From: Raillietiella orientalis
Lineage: Eukaryota
NCBI GenBank assembly: GCA_036172245.1
Contig: JAYWIR010000135.1
Location: 1 to 64,000, forward strand
Length of the DNA stretch: 64,000 bases
Reading direction: 5' to 3'
In this document: positions 9,484-56,992 of the stretch, piece by piece
Layout of the letters: every line of letters starts with the position of its first letter
Numbering within the stretch: the first letter of the stretch is position 1
Notes under the pieces: model-generated
What the model saw: only the letters and a program-made list of their open reading frames with translations
Told to the model about the DNA's origin: nothing
The model's database searches: none
Position numbers and translations under genes: made by a program

Positions 9484-9580
9484 CCCCGAATCCCCGTGGC
9501 AGGCGGTGCAAGGAGAACTCCTCGAAAAACTCGCGTACCGAGACCTTGAAAAGGTCTTATTCCTGGAGATTGCTGAGGGT
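9484..9580 (-). pseudogene. ORF2 linker fragment of a subfamily C host; continues at 22290-22995
   Basis: Reads TLSNLQE*DLFKVSVREFFEEFSLHRLPRGFG on the minus strand. Confidence 0.8.
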
Positions 9581-9662
9581 CGAGCGGACGTGTCTTTTCG
9601 CTGCTCCTGAGTTTCATTTCCGTTGGTGGTTGTGCGTGGTAAGGGTGGAGGATTAGGCAGCA

Positions 9663-25282: not shown

Positions 25283-25410
25283 TCGAAAGCTTTACGCAAA
25301 TCGACTGCGACCGCAAGGGCTCCCGGCGCCGCATCTTCTTCGAGGCTTCCCTACCCCCTGTCAATGGAGAGTTCATGACTTTCCCGACGTAGCTGCGCCT
25401 TGCGTTTTTG
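25283..25410 (-). pseudogene. Short RT fragment ending at LAVAVDLRKAF
   Basis: Minus strand CTTGCGGTCGCAGTCGATTTGCGTAAAGCTTTCGA at 25317-25283. Confidence 0.7.
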
Positions 25411-26674
25411 CAGCTGCCAGCCTAAGGCTGCAAAGAAGGCCGTCAGACGTCCGGCGGATGTTAAAGGCCCGTAAACTTCCGGGTCCGTTGCGGAAGCCGG
25501 AAACCCTCCCACCGTCGCCCTCCCGAAGAGGAAGGCGGGCCGGAAGTCGCGCAACTCTATGCGTGTCGCTCCCCATCTGGCTTAGGAGGAGGAGATGCGC
25601 TCGGATGGTGAGGAGGCGATGTCCGCGAGTGTCGCGGAATCCCTCCATCGACAGCATCCGGTCGGTCCTTCCTATCGACCTCTGTCCGGCTGCAGACGTC
25701 CCGGTCGTTGCTGGAACGCCACCAGCGCAGATGTACAACGACCAGCCGCCTACCGAACAGGAGGCGGCTTTACACACCCCACCACCATCATTAGTATGAT
25801 GAGTGGAATCGCCTCTTGCCAGCAGCTGCATATTGCCTGTTGGAATGTCAACGGGCTGCGTAGCGAATGCAAGAGGTGTAGCGTGGCCGACACCCTGCGA
25901 CCTTTCGACCTGGCACTTCTCCAAGAGGTGCATGCCCTCAGAGCAGAGGACGTCCAAGAAATCAAGTGGCTCACAGGGGGGAGGCTAGTTTGGCGTGGTG
26001 GAGGAGACTTCTCCCGCGGAGTGGCCTTCCTGCTGAAGCCGGCCGTCGCCAATGTGGTGCGCAGTGCACAGTTCGACGAGAAAGTTCGACTTTGTCCTCA
26101 AGTGGTCCGAATCGATCGACCTGGTAGTCACGAACGTGTACGGGCCATGCAGCAGCCACATGCACGCAGAACGCACTGCGTTCTTCGAAGTCCTGCGAAG
26201 AGACTGGCTGGCCGAAGCAGGCGTGCGACGAGCGCATCTGATAGCGGGAAACTTCAACGTCCGCCTGCTGTCGGAAGCGCCCTACATACGTGCACAATTG
26301 GTCAACGAGTTGTGTGCGGCTATGCACACACGCAACTTGTTGGCCGATGAAGCCGGGGTGAGAAGCAGAATCGACCACGTGTTCCTCGATAACCACTTGC
26401 GTACGCGGGTGGGGACTCGAAGAGCAATTGCGTCGGAGCTGTCCGATCACCCTCGGCTAGTGATCAACATTCATCCGCACGACAGAGGTCCACTCTACCA
26501 AGCGTGGCGCCTGCCGGGGGAGTGGTTGCGACTCGCAGGAGCGCGCGAACATCTGCGCGCTTTCCTGCGTAGTTGCGAATTGCAGACTCTTGCTGACTGG
26601 GAAAAAATAAAACGCTAAGTCCGAGAGTTCTGTGACCAGTTTCCCCTCCATCAACTTCCTTCAGGTTTCCGCGA
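25411..26674 (+). mobile_element. LINE subfamily F fragment (ORF1 C-terminus and endonuclease)
   Basis: KKAVRRPA; WNVNGL, GNFN, IDH, SDH; homologous to 49960-51228 and 61300-62570. Confidence 0.88.
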
Positions 26675-29035
26675 TGCCACCCGGATACTTCGGGACGTTT
26701 ATTAAAAACATTTCGACAGTTAATACAGAACGTGGTACAAGGCCCCACTGACGGCCACGCAATACCGGAACTGCCGGGACACCGGGACGCAGCCCGGTGT
26801 TGCTCTTCTCGGCAGTGGAGGGATATGGGGGAGAAAACAAAAATAAAATAAAAGAAAAAAACAAACCCTCAAAAAAAGTTTGGAGGGCCGGGAAGGGATC
26901 ACAGAAAACTGCTGGTAGCGCCCATCCTTTGCAGGATGCCTTCTAGTTCCATTTTCGGTTTTCCTAGATGGGGCCATCGGGTAGCTCTCTGCAGGAAGCA
27001 AGAAGCATACTCGATGACGTCCCTCACGATGCAGTCTTCATATTCGGCATCACTCCAGGCCGCCACGATACCACGAATGCAGCAAAGTGCTGCCAGGGCT
27101 GCGGCTGGATGGGGGCGTCCCGCACGAAGACAAGACTGAAGACACATCCAACATTGCCACCATCCGGTATCCGGAAGGCCGTTTTAAGACGATCCCAAAG
27201 AATCTGGACGGCAGGGAATTCAACTAAGAGGTGGAGGAGCGACTTTTGCTCCCCACACCTGGCACACGCAGGATTTACTCTTCCCCGCGTCCAGTGGAAG
27301 CGGCGCGCGATGCAGGGTAGACCCCAATGCAGCCACAGAAGCGCCGATTCTCGCCACTTCAGGGGAAGAATCCAGGATCCAAGTAGAACCGAGTGCCACT
27401 TCAGATCATCCAATCGAATTCCGAGCAACTCGTCCCATCTTTTTAATCCACGCGGCTGGAGACTAGGGGTCGTTGCATCTGTCAACTCTCCCATAGTCCA
27501 ACCGCTCATCATCTCCGCTCTGCCTGCGATACGGCAGCAGACTTGCCACCTTGCCTTCCGGCTTTCGTGAAGCGCCCTCTGAAGGAAGGGAATCGCCGTA
27601 ACAAGAAGTGTGCCTTCCGCCCACGTGCAACTCGGTGGAAATTCAAGAATTTCACGGAGAGTTCGGCGGGCGTAAAAGACGACTCGCAGGCAGTTCCCAC
27701 GGTCTTCGCACCTCTGGTTCTGCTTGGCCCAGGTGCCAGCAGTCTCTTCCAGCCAAGCGGAGGAGTTGGCAGGGCCAGAAACCATCCAGTCGTTCTTCTT
27801 TGCCAGAGTTGCCATGCGGCCGAGCAGTAGACCGCATCTTCGAATCTTCCGGCCAGGGCACAGAAGAAACGATGCGAGTCCTTCGCAGCGGGACACACGC
27901 CTGGCCAGGAGGCGGACCGGAATGCACCAAGCGGTGCTCCACATCTTCGCTGCGATGGCGAGGGTCAGCCATCGCAGCTGGATTTCCACGCGCTCCAGCG
28001 TCAGGAAGCTGATACCGCCGTCCCCACGCGGAGCGCACAATTCCTTCAAAGGGACTCGGGGCCTCCCCTTGTCCCAAAGAGCTATGCGGAGGAGGTCCTT
28101 CGTCCGCTTTTTTGATTCCTCGGGGGCGGGGCAAACAAAAAGCAAGGGGCGGTGGATGGGGGCCGCGTATGCGTTCCAAACCGCGGCCCGTTCCGGCAAG
28201 TGAAACTTGCCTTCCAGGAACAGGCCGATCGCCGTCTCGACTTTTTGGAGGTAGCTGGACCACACTTCCGCAAGGGAGAAGTCCCCCAACGGCACACCGA
28301 GGTACATGATGCACCTCATCTTGAGGATCCCCAGACGGACCCAGTCCTGCTGCCCTGCCCACGTCGCTCCGACTGGCAACACTGACGACTTCGCCCTGTT
28401 AACCTGTAATCCGGCCCCACGGCTAAGCAGGTCGAAGAAATCTCCGACCGCATTCGCCGGGGTGGACATAGGGAGCAGTAGCAGGAGGTCGTCCTCATAT
28501 GCTGAAACCGCAGGCGTTCCGGGGCATTCATGCGGCAGTTGCGCCAGAGTTTCCCTGTAGGCTCTCAGTACCAACTCAAAGTAGGTACTGAAGAGCAAGG
28601 GGCTTAGGCTGTCTCCCTGCCGGATCCCGCGTCGCACCGGCACGCCGTGAACAGTATGCCCGCTGAAAGTAACATTGATTTGCGAATCGTGCCAGCTAGA
28701 GCGCAGATAGGTTAATAATGAGGCCGGGAATCCCAAGCGTTCCAAATGCTCCAGCAGGAGATTATTGTCGACGCTGTCGAATGCTTTACGCAAGTTGACA
28801 ACAACCGCAAGTGCTCCCTTCCCCATCGGACCATCCGTCGCATGACTGACAGACTCACCGGAATTACCGGTGCACATCAAGCTCCTTTCGTGTTGGAGCT
28901 CTAGCCAGGTGAAAGCGTGGAACAGGTTCGCCTCCATGCTTCGCCCCGGAACAGCATACGTCTGTTTCGGGCTGATGAAGGCGTTTGCAACCCGTCCCAA
29001 GCGCTCAGCCCAAACCTTGGCTATCAACTTGGCGT
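26675..29035 (-). mobile_element. Chimeric LINE 3' half (J-type RT N-terminus joined to an E-type 3' end)
   Basis: Open frame 27024-29035 with RT (YEDD) and zinc finger; terminus AATAAACGTCCCGAAGTATCCGGGTG-GCA. Confidence 0.85.
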
Positions 29036-32023
29036 GCGGACGTGTTTTCTCCGCGCTCCTCTGTGGCTGTTGTAAAGCCTTTTTTTTCGTTAGTGTTTGT
29101 GTGCGGAGCATCTGCGGTGTCCAATGGCAGAAATGCCTGAGGACACCGCGATGAAAGTCGGCGGGGGAGAGGATTGCTTCTCTCCCCAACCTATTGAGGT
29201 GGGGGCAACCGCCCCCACGGAGGAGAGAGCAACCGCTTCCTTGAAAAAGGAAGCATCCGCCTCTCCGGAAACGAGGGCTACTGCCACCTTGAAAAAGGGA
29301 GCAACCCTCCTCGTGCAAAAGGCCGCAACCGCCCCCTTGAAAAAGGGGACAACCGCCGCTTTGGAAAAGGGCGCAAACGCCACCTTGAAAAAGGGGGCAA
29401 CCGCGTCCTTGGATCCACCTGCCCCATGCACGAAGACCTGGAGCTTCGTGGCTGCAGCGCCATCTCCTGCTGCCTTAGCAGAACAACGGGTCTACCTGGA
29501 ACAAGGATACAAGCCGTCCTTGATTTAGAAGGTAGGAAACCTGCTTGTAGGGAACACCGCTCGTAACTTTGAAAGGAAGTTACAGCCGTTGGATGTCAAA
29601 AAGGAACACCTGGAAGGTCTCTCCGTGATGAGTGGGGGCCACCGAGTGGAGCAAACTTGCAAAAATGCAAGTCTGAATCAACGCCTGCTAAACACTCCCA
29701 TCACTCTAGAAGGCCGAAAGGTCTTCCTTGTAACGGAGGACCGCTCCATTGTTGCTCACCTTACAGGTGTAACTCTTCGTATGACCAAAGCTGGCGTTCA
29801 AGAAAAGTTGCAAAAGCATGGTACGGTGCACGCGCTCTGGACCAAGCCCAACGTCTTCCAAACATACGGAAGACTGTTCAGTGGCATGGCTGCAGCGTGT
29901 GTGACGGTTCACGAAAACATTGGGTTGCCCCACAAACTCGACGACGGCAACGAGGTCGTCGACGTCTGGTACGTGGGCAAGCCCAAGTACTGAGGGCACT
30001 GTGATGCAACAGGGCACCATAAAATGGTGCCCTCACATCCAGTGTTTTCACTGCGAAGAGAAGGCCCACCTTCAAAAAGTGTGCTCTATTCGGGAACCTC
30101 CAGCGCCCTCTCATTTGAAAAAAGGTAAGGAAACACGATCCGAGAAAACAAGCAAGACCACTGAAACAAAGGAAAGGCCAAGCAAAAAGCCAGAGTCCGA
30201 AAGCTCAGGAAACGGCGGTCGAGAAAACTCCCGACGACGTTGGTGACAAAGAGGACTGGCGCACAGCGAAGCCGACAAGAAGAAAAATTCGAAAAACCGA
30301 AGAACCGACTACGGAACCCGCGACCACTTCTCTAAGTAGAAGGCAACGCCGCGCTTTGCTCCGTGGATGTTCGGTCGCTTTGGATCGAGAGGAGATCCCC
30401 GATAGCTCCACCGGGGGATATATCTCTCGCCTCGTTGATGCCGAAGCCGCGATGGAGGAAAGCAAACCCTCTGTGCAAACAAAGGGGGCGCCGAGCGACG
30501 CGCTCGCCGCAATCGAGGACGCCGCCTTCCAGCAGGCGGCGGAAGAGCTCGCGGCATAACTCGCGGAGCGTGAGAACGGCGCGCGAAAGGCCTTGCGAAG
30601 GCCGGCCGCGAGCAGTGCACCTCGGATTGGTGAACACGAACCGGATGCCGGAAGCGCGTCCTCCTCCGCGGAGGCGCCTCCGAAGAAGACTGGACGGAAG
30701 TCCAAGAATCCCAAGAGGCGCATCCGGACAAAGAAGGAGGAAGACGCACCGGCATCCGAGGGGGGAGCCGGCAGAGTGGGAACGGAGGGAGGGATTTTCC
30801 CACCCTCCGCTACCGAGCAACTGGAGACATCCATGGAGGAGGGGGATAAGGTGAGTGATTGCCGCCTTCTCTTAACGGTGGAACCTGTCCAGGAGATAGC
30901 CATGGAGGAGGGGGAGCAGACAGCTGACAGCCGCTTTCCCCTGCCGTCCAACGCAGCTGACGAATCGGCAACCATTGTAGAGGGGGAGTAGGTGCGTGAA
31001 ACCCGCCCCCTTCAGCCGTTGCGGTCCGCCGAGGAATCGGCCCCCATGGAGAAGTTAGAACCGGTGTGCGGTGATCCCGTTCCTCCATCCGTCTTGCCCG
31101 ACCAGGTGGCGGCAGCCCCATTGCCACTTTCCCAGGAGTAACACCTGGGCTCGCCTGTTGCCGTCGATTACGCGTGGAATGCTGGAACGTGAACGGGCTG
31201 CGCGACGACGGCAACAGACGGGAAATGGCCGCCACCCTGCGCGACTTCGACCTGGCACTTCTGCAGGAGATCCACGTGATCACCGCGTAGAACGCCCAGG
31301 AGATCGATAGGATCGCAGGGGGACGGTTGATGTGGGAATGCGGCACCCGATACACCTGCGGCGTCGCGTTTTTTATGAAGCCGGCAGTCGACGCAGCCGT
31401 GAAGGGCGCGCGCTTCGACGAAGCCGGTCGTGTCGGCCAGCTGATTCTCTGGTGGTCCGACACGATCGACCTCGTCGTAACAAATGTGTACGCTCCGAGC
31501 GGTCCTACCAGGTACCAGGAACGTAAGGCGTTCCTGGAAACCCTGAAGCGCGACTGGCTGGTCTAAGCGAACGTGCGCTTGGCTTACCTGATAGCGGGAG
31601 ACTTTAATCTCCGCCTGCTATCAGGTGAGCCACACGCACAGGAACGGACGGCTAACGAGTTGTGCGCCGCCATGCGCACGCGCTACTTGTTAGGGTATCT
31701 TTCGGAAATGGTCATCTGCATCGACCACGTCTTCCTGGATGTCGACCTGTGTTTACGGGTCGGCAAACGGTGGAAAGTTGCGTCGGAGTTGTCTGACCAT
31801 TTCCGGTTGATATTCGAGGTGTGCCCGCGCGACAAGGGCCCCCCATTCAGGGCGTGGGGTTTGCCTGGTTACTGGCCGCGACTCTCAGGTGCGAAAAAAC
31901 ACCTTCGCGAATTCCTGAGAGGCGTCACCCTCCGCAATCTCGCTGATTGGGACCTTTTTAAGGCCTCGGTCCGCGAGTTTTGCGATGAGTTCCCCTTGCA
32001 CCTCCTGCCCCGGTGATTTGGGG
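29036..32023 (+). mobile_element. 5' half of LINE copy C2 (5' UTR, ORF1 29124-31141, endonuclease)
   Basis: GCGGACGTG start; collinear with C1; cut at LLPR*FG by D2. Confidence 0.9.
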
Positions 32024-35000
32024 TTGTCACCCGGGTACGCCCGGGGCGTTCATTGAAATTACTCTGCATGAACGTGGTACGAGGCTTCACTAACGGCCAC
32101 ACAACACCGGACCTGCCGGGACGCCGGGACGCAGCCCGGCGTGACGCTTCTCGGCAGTGGAGGGGGATAGGGATCAAAAAAAAAGAAAAATAAATATAAG
32201 GAAAACAAAAAAAAGAGTTTGGAGGGAGAGGAAGGGATCACAATCCACTGGGAGGAGGGCCCATCCTTCGCAGGATGCCCTCCAGATCCATCTTCATGCT
32301 TCCCAGATGGGGCCATCTCGCAGCTCTACGCATGAAGCAGACCGCATACGGGATGACATCCTTCGCGTTGGCATCCACTCCTTCGTCGCGAATGTCGCTC
32401 CAGGCCGCCACGATGCCCCGAATGCAGCAGAGGGCTGCGAGGGCTACGGCGGGCTGCAAGGCGTCCCTCACGAAGAGGGGCCGAAGAACGTCTCTGGGCG
32501 CGCTGCCCATTGGGAGCCCGAGGGTCGTCCCGAACCGTTCCCACAGGGGTCGGAGGGCAGCACAGTCAACAAGTAGGTGGGGGAGCGATTCCCTCTCCCC
32601 GCACCTGGCACACTCAGGCCTTACACTTCCCCGCGTCCAGTGGAAGCGGCGCGCGTTGCAGGGTAGACCCCAGCGCAAAAGCAGCAGCGCCGACTCTTGC
32701 CACTACAGGGGGAGAAGCCTGGATCCGATTAATATTGGGAGCCACTTCAGGTCATCCGTCGGGATGCCGAGCAGCTCTCCCCAGAGACGAAGTCCACGCG
32801 GGAGGGCACTCGGGGTCGTGGCATCTGCAAGTTCTCCCATGGTCCAACCGCTCATCTACTTTTCCTTGCCTGCGATTCGGCAGGAGACTTGCCACTTTGG
32901 CTTGCGGCCACTGGTAAAAGCCGTCTGTAGGAAGGGCAGGGTCGAGGCTAGAGGGGTAGTCTCCGTCCCCGTGCTCCTGGCGGGACACTCCAGAGTAGTC
33001 CGCAGTGTGCAGCAGGAGTTGGGGCCGAATCGCAGGCGGTTCCAGTCCGGGGAAGTTTGGAGGTTCAGCTTGGCCCACGTCGCAACGGATTCCTCCAGCC
33101 AGGCGGAAGAGTTGGCGAGACTGCATACCGTCCAGCCGTTGTCTCTCACCAGGGCTTCCATGCGCCCAAGGTGAAGGCCGCATCTTCTGACCTTCCTGTA
33201 AGAGCACAGAAGGTACGACGCGAGTCCTTCCTTCCTGGACACGTAAGCTGGCAAAAATGCGGGCCGGAACGCACCAAGGGGTGCTTCATGACTTTGCTGC
33301 GATGGCGAGGGTGCGCCATCGCAGCTGTATGTCCAGGCGCTCCAGCGTCAGGAGGCCGAGACCGCCGTCCCGACGAGGAGCGCATTAGTCATCCAGACGC
33401 ATAAGTGGCCTCCCGCTGCCCCAGAGGGCGATGCGGAGTAGGTCCTTGATCCTCTTTTTAATGTCACGGGGGACGAAGCAAACAAAAAGCAGGGGGAGGA
33501 GGATGGGAGCCGCGAACGCGTTCCACACCGCAGAAGGAACTTGCCTTCCAGGAACGGGCCGATTGCCAACTCTACCTTCTGGAGACGACCTGACCAGGCT
33601 TCTGCGAGGCAGAAGTCCCCCAACGGGACACCCAGGTACTTCAGATACCTGGCCGTGGGGATCCCCAAGAGGATCCAGTCAGGCCGTCCGACCCACGTCG
33701 CACCCACCGGTACGACCGACGACTTCGCTTGTTTACCCGCAGTCCAGTCCCACGACTTAGCAGGTCGAAGAAATCCTGGACTGCGTCTGCCGGGGCGGAC
33801 ATGGGCAACATGAGCAGAAGATCGTCGGCGTATGCTGCAACGGCGGGCGTGCCGGGGCACGAGCTGGGCAGGGCAGCCAAAGTCACCCTGTACGCTCTCA
33901 GCACCAACTCAAAGTAGGTGCTGAAGAGCAGGGGGCTGAGGCCATCGCCCTGCCGTATGCCCCGCCGCACCGGCACGCCGTACACCTGTTGGCTGCAAAA
34001 AACGATGTTGACAATGGCATTGCGCCAGCATGAGCGAGGTAGGAGAGAAGGGAGGGTGGGAAGCCCATGCGACCCAGGAGCTCCAACAGTAGCTCCTGGT
34101 CAACGCAGTCGAACTCCTTATGGAGATCGACCGCGATGGCTAGGGCCCCCGCCCCAGCCCGGGTGTCCATTCCCAGCCCAGCTGGCGGCCCCAAAGTGGG
34201 GTTGCCAATCTTTCCGTCAGTTTCATTTAGACAGCGCTGCACATGGAACCACGTGCTCGCGAAGAAGAGGTTGGCATCCATACTTCGCTCGGGAACAGCA
34301 TATATATGCTCCGGGCTAATTACGGATTCTGCCACTTGTCCCAGACGCGAAGCCCATAGCCCGGCAACCAACTTGGCGTCCGTATTCACAATCGTGATCG
34401 GACGCCAGTTGTTGAAATTCCTAAGGTCCCCCCTTTCGGAAGGAGCCTTACTCTGGCTGACCTAAACGAAGCGGGAACATCGCCTTCGTCTCGGATCAGC
34501 CTTGTCAGCTGAAGCAGCAGGGGTGCCAGCTCTTCCGCGAAGCTCTGATAGAACTCCGCGGGCAAGCCGTCTTCCCCTGGAGCTTTCCGGTTCTTGAGCC
34601 TTTTGATACCGGCGAGAATTTCGCCTATGGTAAAAGACTCATCGAGGCTTAACGACTCCTCCTCCCCTATTGCCGCGGCAGCATTCGGAAGCAAGAGCCG
34701 AGTGGCATCTTGATCCGGGGGCGCCCTGGCTTAAATGGAGGAATAATAACTCCGCACGAGATGCCGTACCGACGCCGGGGACGAACATTCCCGGCCCTGG
34801 TCGTCCAGCAAGCTGGCCGACCCGGATTGCCAGGCTTGGCGTTCGGCCCCTGCGCAATACTCGGCCAGGCGACGGGCATTAGGGGTTCGCTCGTACCTAC
34901 GGGCCTGTAAATAGACCCGATGGTTGAGAGCACCCTCGCCGAAACCGGAGGGCAGGCGTTCCAGGGGGAACTGCTCGCAGAACTCTCGGACCGATTCCTA

Positions 35001-37702
35001 AAATAGGTCCCAGTCCTGGAGATTCCGGAGCGTCGAGCGGACGTGTGTTTTCGTTGCTCCTGAGTTTCATTTCCGTTTGTGCTTGTGCGTGGTGTCGGTG
35101 CAGGATTAGGCAGCAATGCCTGATACCACAACCGGTGAGGATCCGGGGGCGATGACCTCATTGCCCCCGGAGGAGATGGAGGTGGGGGCTCCCGCATCAG
35201 TAGAGGCTTCCGTCAGCATGGATGCGCCCCCGGCCCTACCCAGGGCTTGGAACACCGTGACTGTGGCACCTACGCCAGCAACTATGGCGGAAATGCGCGC
35301 TTACCTGGAGGAGGGGTATAACCCACCCCTTCTATATAAGGTAGGCGGTTCATATTCTCCCGAGAACGCGCGCGCCTTTTCGCAGGCGATGCGCGTTCTC
35401 GGTGTACAAAAAGAGGAGCTTCTGGCTAAATCCGTCAGAAGCGGGGGTCAATTTGTGGAAGTTATCGCAAGGAGGCAACTCTTGCGCAGAGACTTCTGCG
35501 TACCCCCGTAATTATGGGCAGCCGACGGCTTCTCCCAATTACTGAAGACCGGTCGGTGATCATTCACCTGACCGGTATCACGTTCCGGATGACGGAGGAG
35601 GCCGTCCGGTACGAATTGGAAAAATAAGCAACTGTCCACGCGCTGTGGGGAAAGCCTACTCCTTTTGTCGATTACGTCGGGGTGCTTGGCGGCTTGGGTG
35701 CAGCGCGAGTGACGGTTCCCGAGAGATGTGAGTTTCCCCACAAACTCACCGTCAACGGTGAATCCGTTGACGTGTGGTACGTGGGGAAACCAAAGTTTTG
35801 CGGCTGCTGAAGAAGCTTTGGTCACCATAAAATAAGGTGTCCGAGCGTGCAGTGCCAGCAATGTGAACAAGCGGGGCACACCCGTCTGGTGTGCCTCCAA
35901 CACGCAGTCCGCGTCGTGTCCGCGAAAAACGCGAGAAAGCGCGCGGCTAAGAAGAGGAAAAAGCTGGCAACTCGTGCTGCTGCTAAGAAGTCACTTCCGC
36001 CACCAAGGCGTAGGCCAGCCCCGAGACCCCTGCGAAAAACGCCGAAAACGTCGAGGGCGAGGGTCAAGAGCCAGGGTGGCAGAAGGTCGATCCCAAGGAA
36101 AACTCCCATAAGAAGGGAAAGAACGTGGCGAAACGGAGCGAAACAGCTCTGCGCCGCGAAAAAATTAAAAGCTGCTGCGTCGTTGTAGAGCGGATTTCCG
36201 CCATCGACGAATGCGGCTCTAAAGAACTCGCTGCTGCCCCTGCTCAACCCTCCGTTGACAAAGTCAACAAGGAGGGGAGCGAGGCGGCGGCGTCCGTCAT
36301 CCATCCCACGCTAGATGACGTCGCCTTCGAGCGCGCCGCGGAGGAGCTGGCTGCCTCGTTGCAGCCGGTGGCCCCCAAGGATGGCAAGAAGGCCGTCAGT
36401 CGTCCGGCTTCCCCTCAGGAGTCGGCCACTTCCGATCCCGAGGTGAAGGCCGGAAACACAGCATCCATCTCCGCGGCACCCCGCAAAAAGGCAGGACGAA
36501 AGTCCACAATGTCCCGGAAGATCGTCTTTCCCTACGAGGGGAAGAGATGGCTTCCATTAGCGAGGGTGCCATGAGGGTGAGAAACTCTCGGGACCCGTCG
36601 CCGGAGAGAATTCCACGGTCGGACACGGAGGGGATGGTGAGGATGTAGTCCGAACAGGTACCACAGGCGCCTAAAGAGGACTCCGTCCGCGTACCGATGG
36701 ACCTTACCTACACCTGACCCGCGGCAGGAGTCGCGACGCCACTTTCCCAGCCATAATGCCGGGAATCGCCTCTCGCCGTCGTCTTCTGATCGCCTGTTGG
36801 AACGTGAACGGGCTAAGCGACGACGGCAAGAGGCGTGACGCGGCCGCCACCCTGGCATCCTTCGACCTGGTGCTGCTGCAGGAGATTCACGTGATCTCCG
36901 CAGATCAAGCCCTGGAGATCGAACGGATCTCGGGTGGGCGGCTGTTGTGGCGTTGCGGCCCCGCGAAATCAAGCGGTGTCGCCTTCCTGCTTCGGCCAGC
37001 CATCGACACCGCAATAAAGGACGTTTGGTTCGATGACGCAGGTCGCGTCGGTCAGCTGACTCTCAGCTGGTCCGACTCTATCGACCTGGTCGTCACCAAC
37101 CTATACGCTCCTAGCAAAAACGCCGCGTTGAGGGCGAAGGCAAGAAGGGAGTTCTACCTTGTCCGGAGACGCGATTGGCTGACCGATGCTGGAGTTCGCA
37201 AAGCGCACCTGATGGCAGGTGATTTCAACCTGCGCCTGCTTTCTGGTGCGCCGGATACACTGAACGACCGCGGCAACAAGTTGTGCGCAGAAATGAACAC
37301 GCGCAACTTGTTTGCCGGGGACACGGCCATGGAAAGCAGCATCGATCACGTGTACCTCGAACAGCACCTATGCTCTCGGGTGGGCAGGCGCAGCTAGGTA
37401 CCATCCGAGCTGTCGGACCATGGTCGGATGATGTTTAAAGTGCGTCCGCGCGACAAGGGCCCCCCTCGTCAGCGTGGCGTCTGCAAGGGGACTGGCTGAA
37501 GTTTCCCGACGCGGCGGAGCACCTCCGCGCGTTTATTCGGAGCTTCAGGATGCAGACACTTCAGGACTGGGACCGCTTCAAGCGGTCGGTCCAGGAGTTC
37601 TGCGACCAGTTCCCCCTGCATCGCCTACCTCAGGGATTTGAGGAAGGGCTGCGTAACGAAAGGTGCTATCTTTAGGCGCGACGTTACGCGAGAACCCACG
37701 AA

Positions 37703-39382
37703 ATGCGCAAGTTAGCAGAGTATCGAGCGGGAGCCGAGAGGCAAGCGTGGCAATCCGGGTCGGCCAGCTTGCTGGACGACCAGGGCCGAGAGCACTCGGT
37801 TATAGCTCAGAAACGCGGAATAGTTAGAAAATTTTACTCCTCCCTGTACGCCAGGGCGCCTCCGGAGCAGGCAGTCTCGCGACTCCTGCTTCCGGAAGGT
37901 GCTCTAGCAATCGGGGAGGAGGAGAAAAGGAACCTCGACGAGCCTTTCACGATGGGCGAGATCATCTCAGCCATCGGAAAGCTCAAGAGGCGAAAGGCTC
38001 CAGGGAAGGACGGCCTGCCTGCGCAGTTTTATCAAACTTTCGCGGCAGAGCTTACTCGCTTAATACATCAGCTCACTTTGCTGATCCTCGAAACAGGTGA
38101 CGTTCCCACCGCGTTTCGTTCAGCAAAGGTGCGGCTCCTCCCGAAGGGAGGAGACCTTAGGAGCATGAACAGCTGGCGTCCCATCACAATAGTGAATGCG
38201 GACGCCAAGTTGCTAGTTGAGCTGTGGGCAGAGCGCCTGGGACGGGTCGCCAACATCTTCATCAGCTCGGAACAGACGTATGCTGTTACCGAGCGAAGTC
38301 TGGATGCGAACCTGTTTCACGCTTCCACATGGTTAGAGCACCAACAAGGAAGGAGCATAATAAGCAACAGGAATTCCGGTGCGTCCGTCGGTGGGGGACG
38401 GGATGGTCGAGAGGGGAGAGGAGCCGTCGCGGTCGCAGACGATTTGCATAAAGCATTCGATTGCCTCGACCAGAATCTCCTTTTGGAGCTTCTGCAACGC
38501 TTGGGCTTCCCAGCCTCTTTGCTGGCCTACCTGCGCTCCAGCTGGCGCGACGCGCTTATTAATGTTTTCTTTAGTGGATCCACCGTGTACGGCGTACCTG
38601 TGCGACGCGGCATCCGGCAGGGAGACAGCCTCAGCCCCTTGCTTTTCAGCGCCTATTTCGAATTGGTGCTGAGAGCATACAGGGAGACTCTGGCACACCT
38701 GCCGTGCGATTGTCCCGGTACGCCTGCGGTTTCGGCGTACGCGGACGATCTTCTGCTGCTGCTGCCTATGTCCACCCCAGCCTCGGCGGTCGAGGACTTC
38801 TTCGACCTACTGAGTCGTGGAACAGGACTCACGGTGAACAGGGCGAAGTCGTCCGTAATGCCAGTAGGAGCGGCGTGGGCAGGGCAGCAGGACTGGGTCC
38901 GTTTGGGGATCCCCACGGTGAGGTACTTCAAGTACCTTGGTGTGCCGTTGGGGGACTACTCCCCTGCGAAGGGGTGGTCCCGCTGCCTTCAGAAGGCTCA
39001 GGCGGCGATCGGCCCGTTCCAGGACGGCAGGTTCTACCTGCAGGAACGGGCCGCGGCGTGGAACGCGTTTGCGGCTTCCCTCCTTCGCTCCTTGCTTTTT
39101 GTTTGCCCCCCCTCAGCGGAGTCAAAGAAGAGGACAAAGGACCTCCTGAGGATCGCCCTTTGGGGCAGACGGAGGCCCCGAGTCCGTTTTTCGGACTTGT
39201 GCGCTCCTCGTCGGGATGGTGGTCTGGGCCTCCTGACGTTGGAGCGGCTGGAGCTACAGCTCCAGTTCCGAGTTGTTGCCTTTATGGCAGAAAATTGGTG
39301 CACCCCTTGGTGCCTCCCTGCACGTCTCCTCGTCGAGCGTGCCACCTGCAATCCTGGACTCTCGTTCTACTTTCCACTATGA
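37703..39382 (+). pseudogene. RT region of B2 ORF2 (559 aa open segment)
   Basis: KAPGKDGL, SWRPI, KAFD, QGDSLSPLLF, YADD, KYLGV. Confidence 0.93.
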
Positions 39383-40126
39383 GGGTCCGTCTGCCACTGC
39401 GGACTGCAACTTCGGAGGGCGGCCAAGCTCCTGAAGACCAACTAGGCGCAGATCCTCGTACGCTTCGCGAACGGTCCTGCCTGGTTGCAGGAAACCGTCC
39501 GCACGTGGGCGATGATTCAAGAGCAGAGCCCGCAACACGAGCAAATAGCTCTGTTCGGGCCGCATGTCCACCGCACGCTCCAAGAAATCATCGAGAATCC
39601 CCGAAGGAGAGCGTGGGCATAAAGATCCTCCCTTGCTGCGCTACTGCCTACCCTACGGGAACATCTGGGCAGCGACGTCGCGGCACAATGGTAGGTTACT
39701 GTCAAGATCGCCAGCAGGGCAAAGAAGATCGGGGATTGGAGAACGGGTCAGCTCACCAACGCTGCGTCCCCGAGGACCACCCCAAATGGACTGTTGCGCT
39801 GGGGAGAGCTACTGGATGTTCCAGAGGAACATCTCGAGTGGCCCCCGGTGCTCATGGACTCGCGCACCCTCCCCATGAAGTGGCAACAGTCGGCACTGCT
39901 TTTACACCCGGGTGCGCCGGGGCGTTTTTTTCTTTAATAAAAAAAAATAAACAAGCAAGTGTAGGGCTATCGTCCCTACAGTGTTCAGAACATGTTCTTC
40001 TGAACTCGCCGAGTGGGCAGCACGCAGGCTCCCAAGGTCGACTCGGCAGCAAAGGGGGAAGGGACAAATAGGAAAAAGCAAAAAGAAAACACTATTTACA
40101 AAAGCAGGGAGGGGTTGGAGGAGGGA

Positions 40127-43100
40127 TCACGTTCCGCTGGAGACGTCCTCTACATCCTTTGCAGGATGCCGGCAAGTTCAAACTGCATGTGTCCCAGATG
40201 GGTCCATGTGGCTGCCGTCCTCAGGAAGCGCAGGGCGTAGCACAAGATGTCCCTATCGTTCGGTCCACCAGTGGCGGTGCTCCAAGCCGCTACAATCCCT
40301 CGTAGGCAGCAGAGGGCTGCAAGGGCTGCGGCAGGCGAAAGGGCGTCGCGCACGAAGAGGCGCTTTAAAATGTCTCTGGGAGCGTGCAAGGGTGCACCAA
40401 CGGCTGTTGCAAAGCGCAACCACAGGGGCCGGAGGGCAACACAGTCAACGAGCAGGTGCGGGACAGTTTCTCGTTCGCCGCACCTGACACAGTTTGGGTC
40501 CACAACCCCCCTCGTCCAATGAGAGCGGCGGGCGTTGCTGGGGAGTCCCCAGTGCAACACCAGGAACGCCGACTCCTGCCACTTTAGGGGGAGGGCCCGA
40601 GTATTCCTCAGCACTGGGGGCCACTCGAGTTGATCCCGCGGGATGCACAGCAGCTCGCCCCAGCGCAACAGTCCTCTCGGTGGGGAACTTGGGATCGCGG
40701 CATCAGCAAGCTGACCCGTGGTCCAACCACCTTGTTCTTTCTCAGTGTCCCTGATCGTACACCGGACCTCCAACATGGCCGGCTGGCTACTGCCCAGATG
40801 TTCCTTGAGGTGGGACAGAGCTGTGGCAAGGGAGGACCTCTCAGCCCACGCACTCAAGGCGGGCTGCACGATGATGTCCTGCAGCGAGCGGCTCTTATGA
40901 TAGGAGTGCAGCATTCGCTGCCGCAACTCCGGGCTCGCTTCCTCGATCTGGGCCCACGTGCGAAGGCTTTCCTGCAACCAGGAAGTGCCGTTCGCGGGCC
41001 GGCAGGAGATCCAGGTGTTCTTCCTGGTCAGCTTCGCCACTCGCCGAAGAGCCAGTCCGCAGTGGAACAGGTACCGGCGTTTGCGGCGCGCTAGGAAGGT
41101 AGACAGTCCCACGCAGCCGCCGACTCGCTGAACCAGGCATCGTGCAGGCTCGCACCAGCTGGCGCTCCACAACTTCGCCACTAGGGCGATTATTCGGAAC
41201 TGCAGCTGCAGTTCGAGGCGCTCCAGCGTGAGGAGGCCAAGGCCCCCATCGCGACGAGGGGCGCACAAGTCCTTCCAACGCGCGCGGGGCCTTCCTCTGC
41301 CCCAGATGGCGATTCTGAGGAGGTCCTTTGTACGTGTTCTCACACCACATGGTGGGGGACAAACAAAAAGCCAGGAGCGAAACAGGGGGGCCACGAAAGT
41401 GTTTCACAGTACGGCCCGTTCCGGCAAGAAGAACTTGCCATCCAGGAACGGGCCGATCGCTCTCTCGGCCTTTTGGAGGCAGCAAGACCATTGTTCCGCT
41501 GGGGAGTAGTCCCCCAACGGCACACCGAGGTACTTAAGGTACCGTACCGTGGGGATCTTCAAGCGAGACCAGTCTAGCTGCCCTGCCCACGAGGAACCGA
41601 CTGCAACAACGGACGACTTTGCTCTGTTCACCTCGAGTCCTGTCCCGCGACGCAGCAGCTCGAAAAAGTTTTCGACCGCCGACGCCGGGGTGGACATGGG
41701 GAGCAGCAGCAGAAGATCGTCCGCATACGCCGCCAAGGCCGGTGTACCTGAGCACACGCGCGGCAGGCGACCAAGAGTCTCCCTGAATGCCCTCAGCACC
41801 AACTCGAAGTAGGTGCTGAAGAGCAAGGGGCTCAAGCTATCACCCTGCCGTATCCCGCGGCGCACCGGCACACCGAACACGTTCCTTCCCCTGAAAGAAA
41901 TGTTGGTCAGCGCGTCGCGCCAGCAAGATCGCAGAAAGGCCAATAAGGAGGCCGGGAATCCCAAGCGCTCCAGAAGCTCCAGCAGGAGCTCCTGATCGAC
42001 ACTGTCAAATGCTTTCCGCTAATCGACAGCGACCGCGAGGGCCCCTTCTCTCTCCCGACTATCGCGCGAACCACCAGCGGACGTCCCGCAAATCGGGCTG
42101 CCGACCTTGTTCCCTCCATTCATTCTGGTTCTTTGAAGTTCGAACCAGGTGTTCGCGAAGAGCAGGTTGGCGTCCATGCTTCGCCCGGTAACAGCGTAGG
42201 TCTGCTCCGGGCTGATGAAGCTTTCCGCCACCCGCCATATTCGCTCCGACCATAGCTTCGCAACCAGCTTGGCGTCCGCGTTTAGTACGGTAATCGGACG
42301 CCAATTGCTGAGGTTCCGTAAGTCTCCTCCTTTCGGTAGGAGACGCATACGTGCCGATCGGAAGGAGGCGGGAACGTCTCCTGTCTCCCGGATAAGCAGC
42401 GTTAGCCGCTGCACCAGGGGAGCCAGCTCAGCCGCGAAGCACTGAAAAAACTCCGCGGGCAGGCCGTCTTCCCACGGTGACTTTTGCCTTTTGAGCTTCC
42501 CGATTGCGGTGATGATTTCACCCATCGTGAAAGGCTCGTCCAGGCGTACTCTGTCTTCTTCCCCGATCGCCGGGGCACCGTCCGGAAGCAAAAATTGGGA
42601 AAATTCCCGGTCCGGAGGCACCCTGGTGTACAGGGAAGAATAATAGCCGTGCACTAGGCTACTCACCTCTGCCGGGGCCGAGTGCTCTTGGCCTTCGTCG
42701 TCCAGCAGGCTGGGCGACCCCGATTGCCAGGCCTGCCGCTCGGCCCCGGCTTTAAATTCCGCCAGTCTTCGGACGTCTGGTGTTCGGGAGTAACGACGGG
42801 CCTGCAGGTAAGCCCTATTGTTCCGAACACCTTCTCCAAATCCTTTCGGGAGACGGTCCATGGGGAACTGTTGGCAGAACTCTCGCACCGAGACTTTCAA
42901 ATCGTCCCAGTCGTCGAGCGTCTGCAGGCTGAAACCTCGCAAGAATGCGCGGAGGTGTTCCGCTGCGCCTGGGTTGGTCAGCCAGTCCCTCGGTAGACGC
43001 CACGCCTGCGCGGGGGGCCCCCTGTCGCGCGGGCGAATGACGAGTTCCACACGGGAGTGGTCGGAGACTGCGGACTGTATCTTACCTCGCCTGCCCACGC

Positions 43101-43716
43101 GACAGCGCAGATGATCGTCGAGGAAGACGTGGTCCACGCTCCGTTCCATCCCGGTATTCCCGGCTAACAAGTTGGATGCGTGCACCGAAGCGCACATCTC
43201 GTTAACCGGGGTGGCCTCTGTCCTCGCCGCACCTGATAGCAGGCGAATATTAAAATCGCCGGCTATCAGGTGCGCCGTGCGCGCGCCTGCCTCCGACAGC
43301 CAGTCGCGCTTGAACGCACGGAAAAACGCCGTCCGTGCCACGCGCGCGTGACCGCCGCTCGGCGCGTACACGTTCGTGACGACGAGATTGATGGAGTCGG
43401 ACCACCTGAAGGTGATTTGCCCGACCCGACCTGCCTCATCGAAACGAACTTTGCGCACCGCGCGTTGTAAGGCAGGCTTCAGAAGGAAAGCGACCCCGCG
43501 CGTACGGCGGTGGCCGCATCGCCACATAAGCTGACCACCGGCTATCCGTTCGATCTCCCGCGCATGTTCTGCGGAAATCTCATGGATCTCCTGCAGCAGC
43601 ACGAGGTCGAAGGCTTGCAAGGTGGCAGCTATGTCTCGTCTCCTGCCGTCATCGCAAAGCCCGTTGACGTTCCAGCTGGCGATGCGTATTTGACGGCAGG
43701 TGGCGAGTCCCGGCAT
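40127..43716 (-). pseudogene. ORF2 of copy I: endonuclease, RT, zinc finger (~1200 codons; stop at 42019, frameshift near 41400)
   Basis: ORFs 42019-43716, 41404-41964 and 40150-41394 carry all motifs in order. Confidence 0.93.
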
Positions 43717-45320
43717 TACTGCTGGGAAAGTGATGCTGCGTCTTCCGCCTCACCTAGGGGCGCGACGCCGGCTTTCTCCTGTGCGGTGAGGGGCGGCTCG
43801 ACGACCCCCTCCGTCTCCATCGGCTCCGTCTCGACCGATCGTGGGAGTTCAGGACTCGTGTCCATCTCTCCCACGCTCGCCGCACCCTCGTTTCCGGTGG
43901 ATTCCCCTTCCTCGGAGGAGACGATCCTCCTCGGGTTACGGATTTTCCTTCCGGTATTCCTCGGGGTTGCAGATGCGGATGGTGCGTGTCCGGTCTCCGG
44001 GTCCGAGTCCGAGGTCCCGGTCCCCCTCCTCTCGGCCGGACGTCGAACGGCCTTCTTCCCGACCTTTGCGGGATGCTGCTGACTGGCGGCGAGCTCGGCG
44101 GCGGCTTTTGCAAAGCCCACGTCATCGCGGCTCTCCCCCTTGCCTCAGCCTTCGGACGCTGTTTGCACAGCGACGGAGCTGTCAGCGTTGTTGCACACGG
44201 CAACGTCCTGTTCGCACGGCACTTCGGCGTCTGCAAGGCGCTCCAGTACGATCGTGCATTTTTTCAGTCCCTGCTTTTTCGCGGGTTTCGCGGTTTTTGC
44301 AGGGACTTTATTTTTATTATTTACGTCCTTTTTTTCTTTCTTTTTCTTTGGACTGACCTTTTGCCAGCCAGGCTCTTCTCCTTCCACCTCGGTTGCCTGC
44401 GTTTCAGCAGACGGGGTGGTCGGGATGCCCTTTTTGGCTGGCTCCGGGTCAACCGTATTTTCAGACGGCGGCCTGGTCTTGCCAGGCTTCTTGCTCGCGT
44501 TCGTGCCGCTCACGGCAGCAGCCGGCGCGCGCGAAGTCTTTTTGGGGCACACTTCTTCCGTGTGCCCGATTGCCTCGCAATTGCGGCAGGTGATGTTGGG
44601 GCAGCGTTTCTTCACGTGCCCCGTACCATCACAAAACGCACAGTATTTGGGTTTGCCCAGATACCAGATGTCCACAGAATCTCCGTCGACTACTAGTTTA
44701 TGGGGAACCCCAATGTCCTTATTCACAGTCACACGTGCCGCGGCGAGTCCGCTCAGGAGTCCGTCATAAGTACGGAACCTGTTGGGCTTCAGCCACAGCG
44801 CGTGTACGGTGCCGAATTTGCTGAGTTCAGCCCTAACGGCGCTCGGTGACATCCGCACGGTGATTCCACGGAGGTGGACAACTCAATAGTTGTCCACCTC
44901 CGGGACAGGGAAGATCTGGCGGCCCTCGACCCTGACGGGGGTTCGAAGCAGTCTTTGCGCCAACCCTGCTTCTTTGCAGATCAACTCGACATGCTGTCCC
45001 CCGCTGCGGATGGAGAGACCCAGCAGATCCTCCTTGTTAACGTTCAAACGGTGGAGCTCCTTCTCGAAGGAGCGCGCAACACGGTCGTCAAACACCCGGC
45101 CTACCTTATACAGCAGACTCGGGTTGTAGTTGTAGGCCTTGTAGGCCTGGTCCTCGGCGATGGCCGCTGCAGATGGCGCGGCGACCGCGGCGCTGTAGTC
45201 CCTCGCCGGCGCAGGGGACGAAGCTTTCTGGGCAGGTGCCCCTATCTCCATGGGTATGGGGGACGTTCGCCCGGCCCCCACCCCACATTCACTAGTGGTG
45301 GGATCAGGCATTTCTGCCAT
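43716..45320 (-). pseudogene. ORF1 of copy I with two CCHC zinc knuckles
   Basis: CAFCDGTGHVKKRC and CRNCEAIGHTEEVC; frameshift near 44880 and stop at 44145. Confidence 0.9.
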
Positions 45321-46396
45321 CCACCGACCACTGATGCACCGCACTACACCAATAAAGTCGAGTGAGTCAGGAGCGCGCAGAGAACACGTCTGACCGTCGG
45401 CACTGCTGGTGTTGCATTGGGGCCTCCCCTGCAACGCCCGCCGACACCACTGGACGCGGGGGGTGTCAACCCCAATTGTGTCAGGTGCGGGGAGAGCGAA
45501 TACCTCCCCCAGCTGCTAGTGGAATGTGTTGCCCTCCGTCCCTTGTGGGAACCCTTTGCCGCAGCCCTGGGCATCCCCGGAGGCAACCCCAGAGACGCTT
45601 TCGCCCCCTCTTCGTCCGTGACGCCCTGCCTCCAGCGGCCTCGCTTTCAGCCCTGTGCTGCCTACGCGGGATCGTCGTGGCATGGAGCAAAGCGACGGAA
45701 GGATCCAGCGACAGGGATGATAACGTGTATGCCGCCCGTTTCCTCAGGATGGCGACGCGATGGTCCCATCTAGACCACACACGCAGAAAGAGCTTGCCGG
45801 CATCCTCCAGAGGATGACAAACCCTCCCAGCAGACTGTGATCCCTTCCCGCTCCCTCAATGAATTTTGTTTATTTTTTGTTTTCTATTTGTTTCGTTCCC
45901 CCTCCCCACTGCTCCCGAGGTCGACCGCGCCGGTCTGCGCACCGGTAGCCCGGTAAGCTATATCTTTCCAGGGCGTGGCTGGTCTACTGGTCCAGTCACA
46001 GATTGTGTAGGTTTATTCGTGAGAATGAACGTCCCAACGCACCCGGGTTTCAATGGAGATTCCGGAGCGTGACGCCTCTCAGGTATGCGCGAATGTGTTC
46101 CTTCGCACCTGAGAGTCGCGTCCAGTCCCCCGGCAGACGCCAGTCCCTGGATGGCGGTCCCATGTCGCGAGGCCGCATCTCGAAAATTAACCGGGAATGG
46201 TCCGACAACGTTGACGCAACCCTCCCCCGTTTGCCGACCCGTGAACGCAGGTCAGCGTCGAAGAAGACGTGGTCGATGCTGAGCACCATTCCCCTCTCAC
46301 CCGCGAACAAGTTGCGCGCACGCAAGGGGGCGCACAACTCGTTCATCACGTTCACTTGTGTTTCCGGCTCACCTGTTAGCAGGCGGGGATTGAAAT

Positions 46397-49300
46397 ATAT
46401 CACCCGGTCACGCCGGGGCGTTTATTAATAATAATAAACTGGTCAGGGACAATGTCCTCAACCAACAGAACGACAGAGAACATAGAAAAATCACCGGCAC
46501 GCAGGCCTGGTAAACAAACCGCTCGCAGCGTGGGAGGAATGAGGGGAAACAAACAAAAATCAAAAACTGGAGTGAAGGGTAACGGGTTTTTGGTTAGGCT
46601 CCGTACTCACGGGGATTTAAACGATGAGCACCTAAAATGTTTCGGAGCCTATGGGGACGCGGGTATAAAAAGAAAATACAAAATTAGTTTATGGAGGGTA
46701 GGGCAATGATCACCGTGTTGGCCGCTGCTGAGGGTGTATAAACAGGCGGTGTATTGCGGCGAGATTCCTTTTTGTCTCCTCTGTCAAATGAGGCCATCTA
46801 GCGGATGCTCCCATGTAGTAGGATGCTTTGCTGATTACCTCCTGGTGCTGTCCGTTGATTACCAACGCCTGGCGGACGGAAACAACCGCGCGTATGCAAC
46901 CGATGGTTGCAATCCTTGCGCTTAGTGACAGCCCGCTCGGCGTGAAGAATCGTCGAAGCAAGTCTCTTGCGGTGTCAAGGGGATGCATTGATGCTGTTGC
47001 CAGCCTACGCCACACTCCTTGTAGGACACCGCAGTTTAGAAGTAGGTTCCGAATCGACTCCGTCGATCCGCACCGAACGCAGTTCGCAGACGCAAGTCCC
47101 CCGGAGTCACGATGCCAACGCTCGTTGCACTGAAAACCCCAGTGAACGAGAAGCAGCACGGCTTGTTTTGAAGCAAGGGGGAGCAGCGAACTGTCAATAC
47201 ACTGTGGAGGGACTACAAGTTGTTCGGGAGTGACAGCAAGTCCTTCTGCCCACCGGAGGAGTCCCTTTGCAGTAACATGAGGAGTGGCGGCGTCCGCCAA
47301 CTCACTCGTCTTCCAGGCGCAAAGGAGTTCGGTTTATCCCGCTATCGTGCAGCAAACCTCCCACCTCGCCGGTTGGTAACTGTCGTTTCTTGCTCTGGGG
47401 GCAGACAGCGCTGCGGCAAGAGGCGTGACAGCCAGGGTAGAAAACTTCACCTCGTCCTGCAGTACTTCTTCCAAGGATCGTGGAAAAAATTGGCGCAGGG
47501 GCGAAGATCTTCAGAGCGTATTCCTTGGAACGCCGCCCAGGATTCAACAGACTCCTGCCGCCAAGCTTCAAAGTTCATTATGCAGCAGGAGATCCACGAG
47601 TGAGCTTACAGAAGTGCGGTCAACTGCCGCAATGGAAACCCGAAACTCCGCTTCCTGTGTTGACTGCCCGGCAAAAGAGAGAGAAATCCTCCGCTGCCGG
47701 CGCATCTCCGCAGGAGAATGCGGGCTGGCACACACAGGGGGGATGTCCATAGATGGGCACACAGTGCCAGCAGTCGGAACTGCACCTTCAGTCCGATTCG
47801 CTCCGTTGTCAGGATACCCAAACCAGCATCCAGACGCGGAGCTAACAAATCTTTAAGGCGGATCCTGGATCTCGCCGGACCTCAGAGAGCGTTCCTAAGC
47901 AGGCGCTTAGCCCGCTGTTTCGCCGCATAGGGAAAGTCCAAAACAAAAAACCGGGGACGGAGGAGGGGGGCCACAAAGGTGTTCCAAGTAGTCGCTGTTC
48001 CTGCAATGTAAACTTGCCTTCAAAGAACGGGCTGATGGCCAACTTTGCTTTCTGAAGACAGTCCGCCCACGCTTCGGGTGCGCCGAAAGCGCCCAACGGA
48101 ACGCCAAGGTACTTAAGGTACCCGCCCGTGGGGATCCCCAGGCGGATCCAGTCGGACTTCCCCTCCTACGACGTACCCACAGGAACGACCACGCTCTTCT
48201 CTCTGTTCACGCTCACGCCCGCTCCCCGACGAATCAGGTCGAAGAAATGCTCGACACTGGACGCCGGGGTGGACATGGGGAGCAGAAGAAGCAGGTCATC
48301 AGCGTAGGCGGCCACGGCAGGCGTTCCCGGGCAGGAGCTTGGCAAGTGAGACAGCGTCAGCCTGCATGCTCTTAGCACCAACTCAAAGAAGATGCTGAAG
48401 AGCAACGGGCTTAAGCTGTCGCCCTGTCTGATGCCCCTACGAACGGGAATACCATACACGCGGCAGCCGCTGAAAGTAATGCAGGTTAGCGCGTGGCGCC
48501 AGCACGCGCGCAAATACAGCAGGAGTTGCGCCGGGAACTCAAGGCGTTCCATAAGCTCCAGAATCAGCTTCTGGTTTACGCAGTTGAACGCCTTGTGGAG
48601 ATCGACCGCGACGGCCAAGGCATTTGGCGTTCCCTCCTGCCGTCGGCGCCTGTTCTTCTTGCTTGCGGCAGTGACTTTCGCAGCCGCCTGGCTTCGCTGC
48701 GCCACAACTTCCTGCAGCTGCATCCATGTACGCGCGAAAAGGATGTTCGCCTCCATGGATCGTCCCGGAACCGCTTAGGTTTGTTCCGGGCTCAATACAG
48801 ATTCCGCGATACTTCCTAACCGCGCGACCCACAGCTTGGAAAACAACTTGATGTCCAAGTCCACCAAGGTGATCGGAAGCCAGTTGTTAAGTTGACGCAA
48901 GTCTCCGCCTTTCGGCAGGAGACGCACCTTCGCTGAGCGGAAGGAATCCGGGACACACTCGGATTCACTCATATGGGTCGCGAGTCAAAGCATCAAGGGA
49001 ATGAGCTCCACTTCAAAGCACTGTTGAAACTCTGCAGAAAGCCCATCCTCGCCTGGCTCCTTTCGTCTCTTCAGCCCAGCGATGGCTGACGAAAATTCAT
49101 CCGCCGTGAAGGGCTCGTTGAAACGTTCGCGTTCCTCCTCGCCGACAACACGAGCATCCAGAGAGAGGAGTATCTCAGAGAGAATATCCACCGTCGGGGA
49201 TTCCGCGTACAGCGAGGAGTAGTAGCGTCTCACAATGCGGCGTACTTCGGCTGGTGCCGAACATTCCTGGCCCTTGTCGTCCAACAGGCATGCTGCTCCG

Positions 49301-56846: not shown

Positions 56847-56854
56847 TCTAACTG

Positions 56855-56992
56855 GCCTTGGAGGGGTCTGGCTGCAACGATGCAGCCATCTCCTCCGCCG
56901 CACGCTCGAGGGAGGCGTCATCGATCACGGTCTCGATGACGGACCCTTCCGCCGGTTCACTCCCCACGCTGTTGACATTTTCAACAGTGGGT
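56855..56992 (-). pseudogene. ORF1 fragment paralogous to 58063-58202
   Basis: PTVENVNSVGSEPAE..ERAAEE; about 11 mismatches in ~137 bp by eye. Confidence 0.85.

Follow-up and report, generated by a model that had tools for sequence, protein, structure and literature searches.

Some long interspersed nuclear elements (LINEs), among them the R1, R2, telomeric and Tx1 types, are known to insert at exact nucleotides, and the site-specific LINEs with an endonuclease of the apurinic/apyrimidinic (APE) type, such as R1, TRAS/SART and Tx1L, target ribosomal DNA, telomeric repeats or another transposon. DIRS-1 of Dictyostelium, an element that targets its own copies, works with a tyrosine recombinase. 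Here we examine a window of 64 kb (the whole stretch analysed, positions 1 to 64,000 of contig JAYWIR010000135.1, Raillietiella orientalis assembly GCA_036172245.1), which is made up of one diverged, nested, L1-like LINE family, and we ask where in its own sequence this family inserts. We favour, with a probability of roughly 0.6, the reading that the element's protein confers site-specific self-targeting, at several lineage-linked sites, through target-primed reverse transcription.

Several described elements insert into copies of themselves. Zepp of Coccomyxa and Chlorella and ZeppL of Chlamydomonas are L1-clade LINEs that target their own copies, and their nests are described as GC-rich, tens of kb long and thought to mark centromeres (PMC3446292, PMC8226300, PMC9940879). 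The Zepp arrays are described as tandem and as consisting mostly of 3' ends (PMC8226300, citing Higashiyama 1997). CNL1 of Cryptococcus neoformans is reported to insert preferentially into its own copies in arrays, and its exact sequence specificity is stated to be undefined (PMC12810828). DIRS-1 preferentially targets its own genomic copies, which lie in centromeric clusters, and the model proposed for it combines circular complementary DNA (cDNA) with site-specific recombination and describes no apparent sequence preference (PMC5633606).

By its nest structure the window can be likened to Zepp and ZeppL: it is a dense self-nested cluster, in which family sequence adjoins all 16 element 3' ends and 87% of the sequence matches a paralogue elsewhere in the window (E<1e-10). 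Unlike Zepp as described, it holds several full-length elements, mostly in alternating orientation, lacks poly(A) and has defined nucleotide positions of insertion. None of the protein matches to the second open reading frame (ORF2) of the family carries a green-alga name. CNL1, for its part, is described as related to the R2 superfamily and MoTeR and as subtelomeric, and is not L1-like (PMC12810828). DIRS-1 shares with the family both self-targeting and cluster formation, but differs by the circular-cDNA recombination model given for it. The likeness to the site-specific APE-type LINEs is of another kind: independent copies stand at the same nucleotide with a constant nick stagger, and lineages differ in site. 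Unlike R1, TRAS/SART and Tx1L, the family takes its own coding sequence as target, with several sites per family. Self-nesting LINEs and exact-site LINEs are thus both known already; what appears unusual is the combination, that is, exact strand-specific sites in the element's own coding sequence, several per family and mostly in the linker between endonuclease and reverse transcriptase (the EN-RT linker).

Insertion sites within the element

The best-preserved copy, B2, serves as our ruler. It is full length and lies on the plus strand at 35034-39900 (r1-4867, a 5' part with ORF1-like region, endonuclease, linker and reverse transcriptase) and 45408-46053 (r4868-5513, terminating in ...CCCGGGT and then the tail TTCAA), a total of 5513 bp interrupted by element C; r1-r5513 are coordinates along B2. 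Its EN-RT linker is ~600 bp long, from the endonuclease end at ~37380 to the reverse transcriptase start at ~38000, and has no protein family match.

We located element termini by a fuzzy motif scan and by an nhmmer profile of the element 3' terminus, and mapped the downstream flanks to the element. The window contains 16 3' ends, 15 of them found by the motif scan and one more, at 9478 (plus strand), added by the profile. At 10 of the 16 the adjoining copy is antisense and is joined at one of four exact positions, which bear the amino-acid labels TLRNL, LPxGFG, PAQV and YSSLY. On B2, which is empty at all four, these project approximately to 37542-37559, 37638-37643, 37810 and 37850, respectively; together they span 37542..37850 on the plus strand (r2509-2817), within the EN-RT linker. 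The first-pass annotation of this DNA had counted 9 of 15 3' junctions in a zone at 37550-37850 (r2517-2817), all antisense. Flank mapping bears out that count and raises it to 10 of 16, and translation of the host flanks agrees with the amino-acid labels that it gave to the sites.

Two junctions use TLRNL. At 46048 (46024..46070, plus strand) the 3' terminus of B2 is followed by the 3' copy of its target duplication in the antisense host A, the 5' copy of these 17 bp being at 35017..35033 (plus strand). At 22285 (22261..22306, plus strand) the 3' terminus of B2', a second B2-type element, is likewise followed by the 3' copy of its target duplication, and the 5' copy lies in host A' at 9564..9580 (plus strand). 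LPxGFG is used at four junctions: at 51233 (51222..51257, minus strand), the 3' end of the minus-strand element 51223-56855 meets the antisense host 49654-51222; at 26679 (26668..26703, minus strand) stands a duplicate of that junction; at 32029 (32019..32053, minus strand), element A (32024-35038 plus 46054-46396) meets the antisense host 31097-32023; and at 9478 (9454..9490, plus strand), the sixteenth terminus, an A-type 3' end meets an antisense host. PAQV is used at 3449 (3425..3460), 4581 (4557..4592, a local duplicate of 3449) and 61125 (61101..61136), all on the plus strand. YSSLY is used once, at 14050 (14040..14074, minus strand), where the 3' end of the full-length minus-strand element 14045-19943 adjoins B2'.

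The remaining six termini fall outside the zone, two of them in antisense hosts and four in sense hosts. The antisense pair comprises 25277 (25252..25290, plus strand; host at ~r3430) and 39906, the 3' terminus of element C in B2 at r4867. Two of the sense junctions share the position ~r2190, in the codons for GDFN of the endonuclease: 13408 (13384..13420, plus strand) and 46402 (46390..46426, minus strand), the latter from an insert lineage unrelated to that of 13408. The other two are 56998 (56990..57022, minus strand; host at r1213) and 5426 (5415..5450, minus strand; host at ~r1100, with its first ~50-150 nt weakly alignable). We rejected a common site at r1213 for these two, as alignment places 5426 ~100 nt further upstream. 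With at least nine positions in use, the family does not show the single defined target sequence expected of an R1- or Tx1-like site-specific LINE.

Beside junction 56998, a 138-bp piece (r1213-1347) flanks a short truncated insert on both sides (56856-56993 and 58064-58202, 92% identity), and the far-side host reaches r1646. The arrangement resembles a target duplication of unusual length, up to ~430 bp, or else the product of a local rearrangement.

Separate insertions at the same nucleotide

At TLRNL, B2 has a target duplication of 17 bp and B2' one of 16-17 bp, at the same nucleotide. The duplicated 17-mers differ between the two loci at two positions, whereas both copies are identical within each locus, and the two states match different unoccupied host lineages (C/C like copy #27, G/G like copy #19). 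It follows that B2 and B2' inserted separately, into hosts that were already different; copying of one junction cannot give this pattern. The host contexts differ as well, since A is continuous through LPxGFG and A' carries an insert there.

At LPxGFG, the occupied hosts 31097-32023 and 49654-51222 (copies #19 and #26) are ~65% alike. Each has a closer relative that is unoccupied and runs continuously through the site: copy #10 is 82% identical to #19, and copy #34 is 85-86% identical to #26. The site was therefore hit independently at least two times in the window. At the sense position r2190, similarity is 46% between the two inserts and 65% between their hosts.

External evidence comes from contigs of a related public run, X1, compared with the window over 31000-50900; we interpret only the joints listed in that comparison. 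Among these, the halves of a B2-type element are joined directly, from 39888 to 45396 with no element C between them, in two contigs, and the ~12 letters shared at the joint match the 11-bp duplication of C; these contigs thus represent the empty site for C. Another contig among the joints listed runs along B2-like host to 37631, continues for twelve further host letters and then enters the A-type 3' terminus at 32024. Its host sequence is unlike both A-type hosts in the window, and we read this joint, with its strand deduced, as a further LPxGFG junction at another locus.

Segmental duplication and the number of events

A possible objection is that there is no targeting, and that segmental duplication, inversion and gene conversion, at work in a recombining repeat cluster, made many junctions out of a few that arose by chance. 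Large duplicated blocks do cross the junctions. The block 3393-3730 equals 4525-4862 at 99.7% identity, so that junction 4581 is a copy of 3449. The block 25420-29038 equals 49967-53604 (3.6 kb) at 86.6%; near the junction the insert is 90% and the host 92% identical, and this equality marks junction 26679 as a copy of 51233. Junction 9478 is probably a copy of 32029, judging by the blocks 8753-9580 and 22289-22995, which match 31927-32765 (80%) and 31240-31944 (82%) in inverted orientation. At 76% identity between 2689-4506 and 60354-62181, junction 61125 may be an old copy of 3449. Later segmental duplication, inversion and gene conversion have thus copied some of the junctions, and the raw count is inflated. 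Mosaic likeness between copies, as between A and #27, also speaks for this objection.

Once every suspected duplicate is removed, we estimate that 12 independent events remain in the window, six of them in the zone (two at TLRNL, two at LPxGFG, one at PAQV and one at YSSLY). The first-pass annotation had allowed for up to two non-independent pairs, leaving 7 of 13; this was too small a correction, as at least four of the ten zone junctions are later copies. The enrichment nonetheless persists at 6 of 12 events (scan p 0.0023-0.0041). The covariation between the target duplications of B2 and B2' cannot come from copying one junction, the occupied LPxGFG hosts each have closer unoccupied relatives, the r2190 pair has no common insert or host ancestry, and X1 adds the extra LPxGFG junction. 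Chance multiplied by duplication is thereby largely refuted for TLRNL, LPxGFG and r2190, and as an account of the whole nest we consider it improbable.

Two features of the nest are observations in their own right. An inverted segmental duplication of 4 kb (16961-20996 and 27985-32019, 82% identity) covers three fragments of elements and ends at the LPxGFG junction at 32023; the left copy, which runs through that site without a break, is an empty-site paralogue. Element A (32024-35038 and 46054-46396) and copy #27 (51223-54582) are ~90% alike in r2189-2870, against ~75% overall, a mosaic that suggests gene conversion or recombination between nest copies.

Statistics of position and orientation

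For the statistics the zone measured 322 bp. It makes up 5.8% of the 5513 bp of the element, and weighting by copy coverage raises this share to 7.1%. The raw value of 10 of 16 junctions in the zone was reached in none of 200,000 scan simulations (the earlier 9 of 15 has a value of ~1e-5). With 6 of 12 independent events, the scan p is 0.0023 under uniform placement and 0.0041 under coverage weighting. With each distinct site counted once, 4 of 9 sites lie within 322 bp, and the scan p of 0.066-0.088 is not significant. When 12 events were placed at random, none of 300,000 simulations produced three coincidences (within 1 nt and in the same orientation); a single coincidence has p 0.019. What stands firm statistically is thus the repeated use of exact nucleotides; the data do not establish that distinct sites are in excess in the region.

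These numbers bear on a second alternative, true regional targeting, in which a bound protein, a phased nucleosome linker or an R-loop directs the complex to the EN-RT linker and a weak local preference then picks the nick within ~300 bp. The 4 of 9 distinct sites within 322 bp are all on one strand, which is what such an account would want, and the same 300 bp receive inserts from very different lineages (B2-type, A-type and E1-type). Antisense and sense events number six and none in the zone against two and four outside it (Fisher p 0.06), although the all-antisense pattern of the zone reduces to four of four sites when each site is counted once. The clustering of the sites is not significant after scanning, however, and tethering does not predict recurrence at a single nucleotide with the same 17-bp stagger; moreover, a discrete recurrent site also exists outside the zone, at r2190. 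A look at GC skew gave the R-loop idea nothing to build on, with no consistent peak in the zone among four full-length copies. On balance we think regional targeting unlikely as the primary explanation. The first-pass annotation had proposed regional targeting beyond local sequence: the non-random preference survives de-duplication, but the repeated use of exact positions points to local strand-specific site recognition, the opposite of what "beyond local sequence" implies. Tethering or nucleosome position is possible as a second layer.

A third alternative is survivorship: insertions would occur anywhere, recombination between the homologous host and insert would preferentially erase junctions that lie elsewhere or in sense orientation, and mid-element antisense junctions would survive. 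Homologous repeats in direct orientation are indeed prone to deletion. Over all junctions, 12 of 16 are antisense, and two nested inserts in B2' are accompanied by target losses of 262 and 349 bp. The orientation bias is not significant (p 0.077), though, and four sense junctions do survive; nor can selective loss explain a nucleotide-identical position or an identical target duplication length in independent events. We give this explanation, too, only a slim chance.

Choice of target

The first-pass annotation had also raised RNA-DNA pairing as a basis for the preference. For this test the last 300 nt of each insert were compared with the 120 nt of downstream target on both strands, with shuffled controls. 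Similarity of the 3' untranslated region to the target exceeded the shuffles at none of 14 junctions (scores of 6-10, against shuffle means of ~8 and maxima of 10.5-15), and around the site insert and host share only ~62-67% identity, a poor basis for pairing. With all 14 junctions inside their controls, we rejected guidance by RNA, and the same result weighs against the regional account.

Target sites follow insert lineage. In a tree of the insert 3' ends (last 650 nt), B2-type inserts go to TLRNL; the clade formed by A and copies #6, #27, #17 and #10 goes to LPxGFG and YSSLY; E1 and #33 go to PAQV; and an insert clade with a CATAT loop goes to sense-strand sites.

Under the favoured reading, the family would use target-primed reverse transcription to enter its own older copies, at a small number of discrete strand-specific positions: the four antisense ones in the EN-RT linker, r3430 and r4867 (antisense), and r2190, r1213 and ~r1100 (sense). 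Insert lineages would keep to their own sites, and the nest would later be reshaped by segmental duplication, inversion and gene conversion. The target duplications, the coexistence of full-length and 5'-truncated inserts and the empty site all fit ordinary target-primed reverse transcription. The mapped junctions, the target duplications, the separateness of several same-site insertions and the block duplications are shown directly, and we infer that the sites are recognised by the element's own protein, through its endonuclease or another DNA-binding part.

Two other routes to such structures were considered. Twin priming as a source of the inverted structures was rejected because the 3' end, not the 5' end, adjoins the inverted piece. 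Template jumping was rejected for the sense junction at 13408, where the upstream part of the host sits across the insert.

Several points weigh against site-specific self-targeting by the protein. First, microhomology between element tail and target is 0-4 nt and not consistent. Second, inspection by eye reveals no motif common to the nine sites; some of them have CTGGAG-like and GGAGATTC strings nearby, but at distances that vary and partly through homology. Third, the youngest insert pair (93% alike) stands at two different sense sites, so that specificity is not absolute, and r2190 is common to very different lineages, a pattern that a property of the target would explain as well as a property of the insert lineage would. 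Fourth, both host halves together with a target duplication are present only for B2, B2' and C, the far half of the host being missing or rearranged at the other junctions. Finally, the evidence consists of one 64-kb window and single contigs of one related run.

A more far-reaching version of self-targeting would be that the LINE family homes to its own coding DNA with nucleotide precision. The protein would recognise short antisense sequences in the linker, lineages would keep or shift the nick within ~300 bp, and the co-evolving self-target would build and renew a centromere-like nest. We put this forward tentatively, at somewhat less than an even chance.

The element family

The window has a base composition of ~58% G+C, and most of the sequence without a paralogous match belongs to the 5' region, which is less well conserved and is recovered as family sequence when the search is made more sensitive. 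ORF2 has an APE-type endonuclease at its N-terminus (Pfam Exo_endo_phos, E 8.7e-14, 36675-37397), followed 3' by a reverse transcriptase (Pfam RVT_1 in two copies, E 3e-18 and 5e-16; 37676-39382 in B2) and, in B2, by a Cys-rich C-terminus. In the ORF1-like frame of B2 (35811-36188), which has no Pfam match, a Cys/His knuckle and a strongly basic tail can be made out by eye. The closest named proteins are plant L1 ORF2 proteins (23-36% identity), and the protein matches include a metagenome protein at 62% identity to the family ORF2. Metagenome scans with the DNA pattern of the 3' terminus and with the ORF2 protein returned no matches.

The 3' end of the family consists of AATAAA, a CCCGG..CCGGG palindrome, GT and then an A-rich tail of 4-6 nt (GGCAAA, GAAAAA or GTAAA, with TTCAA in the B2-type). 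Set against the hallmarks of L1, the family has this short A-rich tail in place of poly(A), and target duplications of 17, 16-17 and 11 bp. The AATAAA sits ~8 nt upstream of the palindromic terminal stem, for example in 25238-25282 and 39901-39945. Folding predicts a terminal hairpin in four of six copies, and the prediction beats shuffles in only one of the six (z -4.5); we treat the putative hairpin as a lead rather than a result.

Element C, the full-length insert that interrupts B2, occupies 39901..45396 on the minus strand, antisense at r4867, between the two copies of its 11-bp target duplication (39890-39900 and 45397-45407). B2' is in three pieces (9581-11507, 13416-14044 and 19944-22289) that are 82-85% like B2. 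The gaps between them hold the two nested inserts with host loss, of r1929-2191 (262 bp, at 11507/13416) and r2817-3166 (349 bp, at 14044/19944); both look like target deletion rather than target duplication. Elsewhere, next to the 5' end of a minus-strand element, two short plus-strand fragments at 59504-59907 (r3416-3820) and 60032-60353 (r2799-3120) do not follow the order of the element, and the second of these starts within the hot zone.

Implications

In several algae, clusters of self-nesting LINEs are candidate centromeres, and how the targets are chosen is described as unresolved (PMC12810828, PMC9940879). Were the junctions here a matter of duplication and chance only, the finding would be an ordinary one; the evidence argues against this, albeit from one window. 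If target choice is exact and lineage-specific, it would explain how such a cluster grows without damage to genes. The family would also offer natural variants of both target and enzyme for dissecting how APE-type LINEs gain sequence specificity, and would be of practical interest for targeted insertion. And if the homing version is true, this would be a site-specific LINE whose target is itself, at several sites that differ by lineage, and a natural system for the evolution of target specificity.

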